A DNA stretch of 4,737 nucleotides from a virus (Duplodnaviria; Heunggongvirae; Uroviricota; Caudoviricetes): IMG/VR virus record IMGVR_UViG_2695420382_000015; one strand, 5' to 3'. A program made the position numbers and the translations under genes. Below are positions 1 through 4,737 of this stretch, piece after piece. Each line of letters opens with the position of its first letter. Positions within the stretch are counted from its first letter, which is position 1. The notes below the pieces were generated by a model. It was not told the origin of the DNA. It saw nothing but the letters and a program-made list of their open reading frames with translations, and ran no database searches.

Positions 1-54
1 AAACACTATCAATAAGTTGGAGTCATTACCCCAATTTTTTACGTACGTAAACCA

Positions 55-135: not shown

Positions 136-173
136 NNNNNNNNNNNNNNNNNNNNNNNNNNNNNNNNNNNNNN
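136..173. other. Run of 38 N (masked or unresolved bases, assembly gap)
   Basis: Literal n characters in the sequence; nothing can be read here. Confidence 0.95.
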
Positions 174-449: not shown

Positions 450-1532
450 ATGAAAAAATTAACAGTGGCAATTTCTGCTGTAGCTGCATCAGTACTGATG
501 GCGATGTCTGCTCAGGCAGCTGAAATTTATAATAAAGACAGTAACAAGCTGGATCTGTACGGGAAAGTTAATGCTAAGCACTACTTCTCCTCTAATGATG
601 CAGATGATGGTGATACTACTTATGCCCGTCTTGGCTTCAAAGGTGAAACCCAAATCAACGATCAACTGACTGGTTTCGGTCAGTGGGAATATGAATTCAA
701 AGGCAACCGCGCTGAATCTCAAGGTTCCTCCAAAGATAAAACCCGTCTTGCCTTCGCTGGCCTGAAATTCGGTGACTACGGCTCCATCGATTACGGCCGT
801 AACTACGGTGTAGCATACGACATCGGTGCGTGGACTGACGTCCTGCCAGAATTCGGTGGTGACACTTGGACTCAAACAGATGTGTTCATGACTGGTCGCA
901 CCACTGGTGTTGCAACTTATCGTAACAACGACTTCTTTGGTCTGGTTGATGGTCTGAACTTTGCTGCTCAGTATCAGGGTAAAAATGACCGCACTGACGT
1001 AACTGAAGCTAATGGTGATGGTTTCGGTTTCTCCACTACTTATGAGTATGAAGGATTCGGTGTAGGTGCAACCTATGCTAAATCTGACCGCACTAATAAT
1101 CAGGTTATCTACGGTAACAACAGCCTGAATGCATCTGGTCAAAATGCTGAAGTATGGGCAGCTGGTCTGAAATATGATGCGAACAACATCTATCTGGCTA
1201 CCACCTATTCTGAAACCCAGAACATGACTGTTTTTGGTAATAACCATATTGCCAACAAAGCACAAAACTTCGAAGTAGTTGCACAATATCAGTTCGACTT
1301 CGGTCTGCGTCCGTCCGTTGCTTACCTGCAATCTAAAGGAAAAGACTTGGGTGCGTGGGGTGATCAGGACCTGGTTGAATATATTGATGTAGGTGCAACC
1401 TATTACTTCAACAAAAATATGTCCACTTTTGTTGATTACAAAATCAACCTGATTGATAAGAGCGATTTCACGAAAGCATCTGGCGTTGCTACCGATGATA
1501 TCGTTGCTGTAGGTATGGTTTACCAGTTCTAA
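450..1532 (+). CDS. nmpC: Outer-membrane general porin of the OmpC/OmpF/PhoE family, phage-borne NmpC/Lc/OmpD-like (360 aa precursor)
   Basis: Start ATG at 450 preceded by AAGGG. Signal peptide [23 protein letters not shown] with an AQA cleavage motif, then mature [16 protein letters not shown] typical of enterobacterial porins. C-terminal region has GLRPSVAY and [14 protein letters not shown] and ends in YQF (terminal Phe, beta-barrel signature). The ORF track's 390 start adds 20 residues ahead of the signal peptide and is rejected. Identification is recalled similarity, not a search. Confidence 0.93.
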
Positions 1533-1547
1533 TTTGATTACTAAAAG

Positions 1548-1581
1548 ATATGTTGCGGGAGGCTTTGCCTCCCCAACATAT
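1548..1581 (-). terminator. Long near-perfect hairpin (15 bp stem with one bulged C, 3-nt loop); candidate tR'-type terminator for the minus-strand late leader
   Basis: Left arm atatgttgcgggaggc (1548-1563), loop ttt, right arm gcctccccaacatat (1567-1581). On the minus-strand RNA the stem is followed by CUUUUAGUAAU; on the + strand RNA it is followed by AAGUGG with no U tract. Functional assignment is inference. Confidence 0.35.
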
Positions 1582-1603
1582 AAGTGGCTCCCTCAAGCCA
1601 CTT
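1582..1603. repeat. Second inverted repeat (8 bp stem aagtggct/agccactt, 6-nt loop) directly abutting the first hairpin
   Basis: Read directly from the sequence; no U tract on either strand immediately after it. Confidence 0.3.
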
Positions 1604-1669
1604 CCTTTAGGAGCACAACCTTGCTTCTAACTATATAAACCTTCTGTTATATATTACCCTTTATTTTTG

Positions 1670-1693
1670 GGGGCGTTGCAACGCCCCATTTTT
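1670..1693 (+). terminator. Rho-independent terminator for the porin gene
   Basis: Perfect 18-nt GC-rich palindrome ggggcgttgcaacgcccc (1670-1687) followed by aTTTTT (1688-1693) and more T-rich sequence on the + strand. The minus-strand reading gives CAAAAAUAAA after the stem, so it is unidirectional. Confidence 0.7.
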
Positions 1694-1720
1694 AATAATT
1701 TTTAGTAAACAATTGGCATA

Positions 1721-3858: not shown

Positions 3859-4236
3859 ATGACCAACAAAGAAAACAAAGATAAATATATTAACAAGTTC
3901 AAGAAAGAGCTTTCAAAATATATACAACCAACTGCTGGAGTGGACATTCAATTATTTAACTCTAAGGATGGTGGTGGTGTAATTAAAGCCACTTTGAATA
4001 GAAGTGGAAAAAGAAAATCATCTATTGCTGGTAATTTTACTAAATTAGGTGAGGCAATTACCTCGAGTGGGCAGAGGGTTTTTGGTGGTGATCTATCAAA
4101 TGTGAATTTTTACGGAACAAATACGATTTTTGATGGAGATACAATATTTTTAATTAAATCACCTGATTCAGAGGAGTGGTCATCACAAAAAGCTTCCAAA
4201 GACGTAGAGGGCATCGTATTTGGAGGGAAAAAATGA
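3859..4236 (+). CDS. Hypothetical protein, 125 aa, Lys/Gly-rich, predicted soluble; first gene of a two-gene A+T-rich cassette
   Basis: Uninterrupted ORF with an in-frame TAA two codons upstream of the ATG at 3859 and a weak GGA 8 nt upstream. Codon usage and composition differ strongly from the flanking phage genes. No family recognised. Stop TGA (4234-4236) overlaps the next gene's ATG. Confidence 0.55.
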   Translation: MTNKENKDKYINKFKKELSKYIQPTAGVDIQLFNSKDGGGVIKATLNRSGKRKSSIAGNFTKLGEAITSSGQRVFGGDLSNVNFYGTNTIFDGDTIFLIKSPDSEEWSSQKASKDVEGIVFGGKK

Positions 4237-4661
4237 TTAACATTACTACTAAGGATGGCACTCAAGTCAGTGGTGAAGTAAGAGATCTAGTAATTCTTCT
4301 TGAAACTGATGGAAAAACGGTGTCTGATTATTTGCAGCCAATCCCTCCCAAAAAAGATACACACTGGAGCATGATTTTCATTCCGGTAGCAATTTATATA
4401 CTACTTAATCTTGTATACATTATTGCTCACCCATTATTTCCTGAAAAATATCTAAAAACATCAACATCTATATTTCTATTCATTTCCTTCATATTAAGTG
4501 CAATAGTAGCATATTTTGTTTTCCATAAGCATAAATCTGCCACTCTATCCATATGCAGCTTAGTGTTCTTAGTGTTAATTGTAGGTGCTAACGTAGGGTT
4601 TATCAGTTACAGCGACCTAACACAAAAAGCGACGCAAAAATTAGATAGTTTGTCTAAATAA
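4233..4661 (+). CDS. Hypothetical small membrane protein, 142 aa: about 65-residue soluble N-terminal domain followed by three predicted transmembrane helices
   Basis: ATG at 4233-4235 with GGAGG at 4222-4226 (6-nt spacer), overlapping the upstream stop (ATGA). Hydrophobic segments WSMIFIPVAIYILLNLVYIIA, IFLFISFILSAIVAYFVF and ICSLVFLVLIVGANVGFISY are separated by short charged loops. The ORF track's 4176 start lacks an RBS and runs inside the upstream gene. Confidence 0.6.
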   Translation: MINITTKDGTQVSGEVRDLVILLETDGKTVSDYLQPIPPKKDTHWSMIFIPVAIYILLNLVYIIAHPLFPEKYLKTSTSIFLFISFILSAIVAYFVFHKHKSATLSICSLVFLVLIVGANVGFISYSDLTQKATQKLDSLSK

Positions 4662-4689: not shown

Positions 4690-4737
4690 TGCATGTCTGC
4701 CTTCCATTTAAAATGGGCTAAGACCTATAACCCTAAA

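Follow-up and report, generated by a model that had tools for sequence, protein, structure and literature searches.

The regulatory RNA IpeX is known from the lambdoid prophage DLP12 and from phage PA-2, for which reviews describe a 167-nt RNA that is made from the promoter of the phage porin gene and is part of, or processed from, the porin transcript. The ipeX locus was discovered as a multicopy suppressor and is reviewed as repressing both OmpC and OmpF. Here, we analyzed a 4,737-nucleotide stretch of DNA (IMG/VR record IMGVR_UViG_2695420382_000015, hereafter the window), which is part of a DLP12/PA-2-type lambdoid prophage of Escherichia coli, and focused on the spacer at positions 1533–1720 between its porin gene and its Q antiterminator gene. 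We consider it highly probable that this spacer is the already described ipeX locus together with the porin terminator, and that the late promoter of the prophage lies elsewhere. A preliminary description of the window, made from the sequence letters, had missed the described regulatory RNA locus in this spacer.

Other known systems invite comparison. Linkage to a porin gene is common to several regulatory RNAs, with micC located by ompN, micF by ompC, and ipeX by the prophage porin. In Shiga toxin (Stx) phages, the small RNA (sRNA) StxS is made from the leader between the late promoter pR' and the late terminator tR'. Like IpeX, StxS is a phage regulatory RNA encoded near Q and ends at an intrinsic terminator, but it originates at the late promoter on the Q strand, whereas the source of IpeX is the porin promoter on the opposite strand, and the two RNAs are unrelated in sequence. 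Finally, the late cassette of phages with a Q21-type antiterminator, such as 933W and VT2-Sakai, comprises pR', a Q binding element, a sigma-dependent pause element, and tR'. The Q21 binding element itself consists of two directly repeated 8-bp subsites.

Identity of the spacer

The genes on either side of the spacer converge, as had been recognized from the start: the porin gene on the + strand stops at 1532 and the Q gene on the − strand ends at 1721. The spacer is ~97% identical to the quuD-nmpC spacer of the K-12 prophage DLP12, and 96.6% identical both to the DNA that follows the lc porin gene in the original record of PA-2 (J02580) and to a phage 434 derivative carrying the DLP12 region. 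It shares with the DLP12/PA-2 ipeX its strand and its place, from the porin stop codon to a Rho-independent terminator next to quuD, and differs from it by a few substitutions in the loops of hairpins 1 and 3 and in the tail by the stop codon (hairpins are numbered as in Table 1). Castillo-Keller, Vuong and Misra are said to have placed ipeX, in the abstract of their 2006 study, between the nmpC stop codon and a predicted Rho-independent terminator. In the window, the corresponding stretch (1533–1699), which begins directly behind the stop codon and closes with the T tract, measures exactly 167 nt, the length given in the reviews, and the ends of ipeX would thus fall at 1533 and 1699. A literature search with the spacer sequence returned no match.

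In the mechanism that we propose, + strand transcription from the porin promoter would extend through the spacer, giving the porin message its 3' untranslated region (UTR), and end at hairpin 3. The resulting RNA, as a 3' UTR or in processed form, would then repress host OmpC and OmpF, and the phage porin would take their place. For this particular copy, repression of OmpC and OmpF is expected from the published ipeX work, as covered in reviews, and from sequence identity. The locus is a known case of a prophage swapping the porins of its host for its own. What remains of interest beyond the known locus is a predicted MicC-like pairing and a late promoter at the edge of the window that is split by IS1, and we treat both below.

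The porin gene is intact in the window, in contrast to K-12 nmpC, which is broken by IS5. This copy of ipeX can therefore be made from the porin promoter, as in PA-2. The IS5 element of K-12 interrupts nmpC 57 nt before its stop codon. In E. coli JB2 (locus L008, 1375–2572), most of the porin gene and two thirds of the spacer, from its porin end, have given way to ISKpn26, an element of the IS5 family, and the hairpin 3 side alone remains next to quuD. The 3' end of the porin gene thus appears to be a repeated target of IS5. A match covering only the hairpin 3 side (H171) was considered as a possible module boundary and was rejected, as it reflects an IS5-family-associated deletion.

Table 1. 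Coordinates of the features discussed, numbered along the window
Feature	Position	Strand	Basis and details
Putative IpeX RNA region (porin 3' UTR)	1533–1699	+	Begins directly behind the stop codon and closes with the T tract
Proposed IpeX seed	1638–1666	+	Complementarity, accessibility, invariance
Hairpin 1	1548–1581	+	15 bp (8 + 7), one-base bulge at 1556, 3-nt loop, −22.2 kcal/mol
Hairpin 2	1582–1603	+	8 bp, 6-nt loop, directly abuts hairpin 1
Hairpin 4 (absent from the preliminary description)	1607–1630	+	9 bp, 6-nt loop, from folding
Weak all-A/U hairpin (absent from the preliminary description)	1632–1653	+	Folding
Hairpin 3 and T tract	1670–1699	+	7-bp stem (6 G-C), 4-nt loop, then ATTTTTAATAAT
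Prophage porin gene (NmpC/Lc type, 360 aa, intact)	450–1532	+	Open reading frame list; Pfam Porin_1 PF00267, E = 3.1e-153
Q antiterminator gene (QuuD type, 127 aa), Q21 family	1721–2104	−	PF06530, E = 3.5e-53
Putative pR' late promoter remnant	31–53	−	GGTTTACGTACGTAAAAAATTGG; −35 TTTACG at 51–46; cut 15 bp after the −35 by IS1
IS1 terminal 30 nt	1–30		Exact match to the annotated IS1A edge in K-12

Folding, terminators, and sequence variation

The three hairpins of the preliminary description are all present where it had put them, and folding adds hairpin 4 and the weak A/U hairpin. On the + strand, the 188-nt spacer folds at −69.2 kcal/mol, compared with −36.4 ± 3.7 kcal/mol for dinucleotide shuffles (z = −8.85). 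The − strand reaches −67.0 kcal/mol (z = −6.42), and in neither case was any of 200 shuffles as good. The structure of the spacer is far above chance level on both strands. Hairpins 1, 2, and 4 would serve as stable structural modules of the IpeX RNA, with hairpin 1 probably the 5' structural module of the processed form.

Hairpin 3 was the sole terminator called within the spacer by a consensus scan, and the K-12 copy gave the same call; the only other call fell inside the Q gene, on the − strand at 1765–1742. Its palindrome (1670–1687) reads GGGGCGT-TGCA-ACGCCCC, followed by ATTTTTAATAATTTTT, with a stem energy of −12.5 kcal/mol, and it has the marks of a Rho-independent terminator, namely a G+C-rich stem, a short loop, and an immediate U tract (ATTTTTAATA). 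Hairpin 3 with this U tract is the predicted Rho-independent terminator of the porin/IpeX transcript. We also ranked the hairpins on both strands with a rough score that combines stem energy per nucleotide with a weighted T count (d'Aubenton-Carafa type) and that serves for ranking only, as its absolute values are unreliable and even good terminators come out near zero. By this measure, hairpin 3 on the + strand was the best of all hairpin and strand combinations (−5), consistent with the early view that the GC-rich palindrome alone looks like a + strand intrinsic terminator.

The second best of the eight combinations was hairpin 1 on the − strand, at −17 in the window and −15 in K-12, where it has five Ts, while all others scored −42 or lower and strong reference terminators ranged from +8 to +30. 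Hairpin 1 does carry its U-containing tail on the − strand only, as had been noted (CUUUUAG here and CUUUUUCG in K-12), and the consensus scan did not see it owing to its bulge. Because its score lies below those of good reference terminators, we regard hairpin 1 on the − strand as terminator-like but at best weak for transcription leaving Q. In this role, the hairpin, together with its short U tail, may weakly halt Q transcription before it runs antisense into the porin gene. In phage PhiR40_1, a hairpin and T tract likewise lie directly after Q, ahead of the different reverse-oriented insert of that phage. Hairpin 2 is not a terminator on either strand.

The spacer was found in 2,510 of 5,426 complete E. 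coli genomes (~46%), with a median of one copy each, and in 36 phage records, 35 of which have a porin or Q gene annotated under the match (the remaining one, Turner, has Q only). A stretch of 801 bp around the spacer matches many E. coli chromosomes at 100% identity, with quuD, ompC/porin, and ylcG as the genes annotated in them, and viable phages such as PhiR34_1 and PhiR68_2 match it equally well. The spacer was absent from Q-related phages without the porin (36 records vs 373), and a scan of genome contigs with one exact 28-mer matched E. coli only, with no distant relatives.

To describe variation, we collected 123 copies from IMG/VR contigs and fetched loci, which gave 48 distinct sequences besides the window (49 variants). 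Changes occurred mainly in the tail by the stop codon, in the bulge and loop of hairpin 1, and at the top of hairpin 2, and further variable spots were the loops of hairpins 4 and 3 and the distal T tract. The stem of hairpin 3 was kept in 47 of the 49 variants, while its loop came in four versions (TGCA, CTCA, TTCA, and TTCC). Elsewhere, one change in an arm of hairpin 1 merely moves the bulge, the top two pairs of hairpin 2 are broken in the CFT073-type variant, and a change from G.U to A-U at 1611:1626 preserves the pair in hairpin 4. The main support for the structure is its thermodynamic signal.

Predicted pairing with ompC and ompF

We propose that the active part of IpeX is the seed, an invariant unpaired stretch between hairpin 4 and the terminator, and that it would base-pair with the ribosome-binding regions of ompC and ompF, on ompC at the same site as MicC. 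IpeX positions 1638–1652 are complementary to ompC positions −7 to −21 over 15 contiguous bp, Shine-Dalgarno sequence included. Positions 1658–1666 are predicted to pair with ompC −23 to −31, and positions 1641–1661 with ompF from its Shine-Dalgarno sequence to the start-codon region.

Whole-length RNAduplex runs of IpeX against the leaders returned meaningless long duplexes, and windowed duplexes, cofolding, and a genomic background were used instead. The background comprised 19,984 windows from 100 kb of K-12, both strands, with a mean of −7.3 kcal/mol and a standard deviation of 2.95 kcal/mol. The seed duplex with the ompC leader was predicted at −26.1 kcal/mol (cofolding gain −17.8), ranking first among all 19,984 windows, with the next independent site at −20.8. 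For the ompF leader, the duplex reached −18.6 kcal/mol (cofolding gain −10.2), and 27 windows were as good or better. The ompA leader was unremarkable at −10.8 kcal/mol, with 2,578 windows as good or better, and the leader of the phage porin itself gave −8.0 kcal/mol with a cofolding gain of −3.2.

The seed is also predicted to be accessible. Its loop at 1639–1646 (ACCUUCUG), which belongs to the weak A/U hairpin, shows an anti-Shine-Dalgarno motif and has a mean probability of being unpaired of 0.89, and the corresponding value for 1654–1669 is 0.92. Across six BLAST-derived variants, down to 89.7% identity, the seed stretch is invariant, and its core is unchanged in all 119 IMG/VR contigs that were retrieved through an independent anchor, the terminator. 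Read on the − strand, the seed region (window 1629–1656, ATATAACAGAAGGTTTAT) nearly reproduces the ompC leader (ATATAACAGAGGGTTAAT), which suggests that the seed may have arisen from an inverted fragment of a porin 5' leader.

The likeness to MicC lies in the target site and in short strings of the seed. The predicted IpeX site on ompC (−32 to −6) overlaps the MicC site (about −30 to −15), the duplex energy is close to the −26.5 kcal/mol obtained for the MicC 5' end, and both RNAs contain GUUAUAU...CCUUUAUU in the same order. However, IpeX is not a member of the MicC family and has no Rfam MicC match at E ≤ 10. Its seed lies inside the RNA, toward the 3' end, and not at the 5' end, it is part of a 3' UTR rather than a separate gene, and its predicted pairing extends to the Shine-Dalgarno sequence itself and to ompF.

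On this basis, we lean slightly toward IpeX being a direct antisense RNA that mimics MicC, in which the seed (AACCUUCUGUUAUAU...CCUUUAUUU) would pair with the ompC leader and, in a shifted register, with that of ompF, and from which the leader of the phage porin would escape. A literature search found no report of IpeX-ompC pairing. In the 2006 study, OmpA was reportedly the unaffected control, and its abstract is reported to state that repression of ompC is independent of Hfq while that of ompF needs it. If the pairing is real, the long perfect duplex with ompC, as against the weaker and interrupted duplex with ompF, could explain this reported difference. Reviews disagree among themselves on Hfq, and one of them names ompA among the affected genes. 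The pairing offers a simple and testable mechanism for an RNA that has been described for some twenty years as acting without base pairing, and if true it would overturn the statement in the reviews that IpeX and ompC lack complementarity.

Several points count against the ipeX explanation or parts of it. The ends of ipeX were taken from reviews and sequence identity rather than from mapping. A search of region 1400–1850 against all Rfam families at E ≤ 10 gave chance-level matches only, with neither an IpeX nor a MicC family among them, and the RefSeq K-12 record carries no ipeX annotation. The proposed − strand role of hairpin 1 depends on the rough terminator score, used for ranking only, on which it falls below strong references. 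No compensatory double change occurred among the 49 distinct variants, although this test is uninformative rather than negative, having low power because all copies are at least 89.7% identical. In the same set, stems were only marginally less variable than other positions (9 of 92 vs 19 of 96, p = 0.066). As for the pairing, 4 of 100 shuffles reach the same local energy when the whole of IpeX is set against the ompC leader, and the reviews hold both that the two RNAs lack complementarity and that IpeX does not act via base pairing. The pairing is thus a testable prediction that contradicts the reviews, not a finding.

Of the other explanations, the one that fares best, though we think it unlikely, is that the spacer acts only as a two-way insulator, with hairpin 3 stopping porin transcription, hairpin 1 stopping Q transcription, and the RNA itself having no regulatory role. 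The strand-specific tails would fit such a device, as would the placement of a hairpin and T tract right after Q in PhiR40_1, but two hairpins would then suffice, whereas the spacer has five as well as a 30-nt invariant unpaired stretch. Across 100 kb of K-12, that stretch finds its best match in the ompC ribosome-binding region, and published work ties OmpC/OmpF repression to exactly this DNA. The weak covariation support for the hairpins other than the terminator speaks for insulation. Nevertheless, an insulating function is compatible with, and contained in, the ipeX explanation.

Position of the late promoter

The preliminary description had suggested that the spacer plausibly holds the late promoter, the Q-binding site, and tR', and this was not supported. 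A homologue of the late promoter is found past the porin gene, at window positions 31–53, and a late promoter mapping elsewhere is what that description had itself named as refuting the idea. Within the ipeX explanation, the Q-dependent late promoter, the Q-loading site, and the late terminator would all be outside the spacer, past the porin gene, with the porin-ipeX unit forming a reverse-oriented insert (a “moron”) between Q and pR'.

The evidence for this placement begins with the Q protein. Its only Pfam match is to PF06530 (Q21 family, E = 3.5e-53), with none to PF06323 (Q82 family), and it distantly matches the Q21 structures 6P18 and 6JNX. It is 78% identical to the Q protein of VT2-Sakai and 85% identical to that of PhiR40_1. 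Phage 82, proposed earlier for comparison, was the wrong comparator, because the Q protein is of the Q21 and not the Q82 family. Comparison with the pR' of phage 82 was dropped on that account; the AAA start, the extended −10-like element, the GCC at +15 to +17, and the pause at +25 described for it have no counterpart on the − strand.

With the K-12 nmpC-essD spacer as query, positions 4695–4777 of the K-12 locus (L002) matched DNA right after Q in several hundred Stx-phage records at 77–78% identity. In the two annotated records examined, VT2-Sakai and phi24B, the matching stretch is labeled “putative late promoter,” “putative Q-utilization,” and “rho-independent terminator.” What the alignment of K-12, mEp332, VT2-Sakai, and phi24B conserves is GTTTACG..CGTAAAAA, a −10 element (TATGCT or TATCAT), TAAGAGTGGTTAC, and a hairpin (AACCCGCCG....GCGGGTTTTT); of this homologue, the window retains only 31–53 on the − strand. 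In K-12, the homologous stretch between nmpC and essD also gave a terminator call.

For the Sakai Stx phages, differential RNA sequencing (dRNA-seq) and Term-seq put the start of pR' 258 nt upstream of tR'. In the VT2-Sakai record (AP000422), counting from 7 nt past the −10 annotated there to where the second of its annotated terminators ends likewise gives 258 nt. Because the two spacings agree, the annotated VT2-Sakai late promoter is very likely the mapped pR'; the match was made by spacing, as the published coordinates cannot be transferred to NC_002695.2, whose record version differs. A strong-looking hairpin with a T7 tract (AACCCGCCG....GCGGGTTTTTTT) is common to Stx and DLP12-type phages (VT2-Sakai, L004 1262–1284; K-12, L002 4754–4775). 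It lies ~27–50 nt after the late promoter start and is thus promoter-proximal, although the mapped Sakai tR' is 258 nt downstream of that start.

At the edge of the window, IS1 splits the putative pR' homologue between its −35 and −10 elements, so that the native promoter of this prophage would no longer drive the lysis genes under the control of Q. Viable DLP12-type phages are arranged as Q, spacer, porin on the opposite strand, ~570 bp, holin, endolysin, and spanin. In PhiR40_1, a different reverse-oriented gene separates Q from the same pR' homologue (L006 1205–1883); it is 447 nt long and has an N-terminus that resembles a lipoprotein signal. Accessory genes thus seem to have inserted repeatedly at the Q/pR' junction, the porin-ipeX unit being one such insert. 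In both the DLP12/PA-2-type phages and PhiR40_1, the accessory gene between Q and pR' comes with its own terminator. For annotation, this means that hairpin-rich DNA just past Q is not necessarily the late promoter region and that, where an accessory gene follows Q, the late promoter should be sought on the far side of that gene.

We therefore judge it very unlikely that the spacer itself is the late regulatory region, in which the − strand after Q would carry pR', a site where Q binds and polymerase pauses, and, in the form of hairpin 1, a late terminator. Such a layout would match lambda, 21, 82, and the Stx phages, in all of which pR' directly follows Q, and like the late cassette of 933W and VT2-Sakai the spacer adjoins a Q21-family Q and has a − strand U tail, on hairpin 1 and on that strand only. 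It would also require Q-modified polymerase to cross the porin gene antisense on its way to the lysis genes. Unlike the late cassette, however, the spacer has no promoter and no repeats and shows no homology to pR' regions in phages whose Q is closely related, whereas a homologous cassette is found at 31–53 and beyond IS1. A lenient sigma-70 scan of both strands of region 1400–1850 found no promoter-like site against 1.4 expected by chance, with the same outcome in K-12, in agreement with the earlier failure to place convincing −35/−10 hexamers. Direct repeats of at least 7 nt, the kind of element that Q21 would bind, were absent from 1533–1720.

Although A/T-rich, −10-like strings (TAATAT and TATAGT) do occur on the − strand within the invariant stretch, they are explained there as the mirror image of the ompC leader that forms the IpeX seed. 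A candidate −35 (TTGCAA, paired with GGTAAT or TAATAT) was rejected, as it lies in the variable loop of hairpin 3 and does not pass the promoter scan. The late-promoter homologue, moreover, lies beyond the porin gene in K-12, mEp332, and the window, and beyond the other insert in PhiR40_1, while the spacer travels with the porin. Lastly, the idea that the structure arose by chance or as a neutral by-product where phage modules recombine is scarcely credible: the copies are closely related, which makes their conservation alone weak evidence, but the spacer folds more stably than every shuffle on both strands, substitutions concentrate in loops and the bulge, and the spacer is kept in nearly half of complete E. 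coli genomes and in viable phages.

Flanking genes and other observations

In matching phages and genomes, the homologue of the porin gene is annotated as porin, OmpD, or NmpC. Besides Q, the − strand of the window carries ylcG, rusA, ybcO, ninE, and ninB/ybcN. A run of 38 Ns, standing for masked or unknown letters, occupies window positions 136–173, upstream of the porin gene in the stretch that separates the pR' remnant from the region of the porin promoter. At the other end, window positions 3859–4661 contain two A/T-rich + strand open reading frames of 125 and 161 aa, the latter with predicted hydrophobic stretches, which stand where K-12 and strain ST2350 have ybcM/ybcL.

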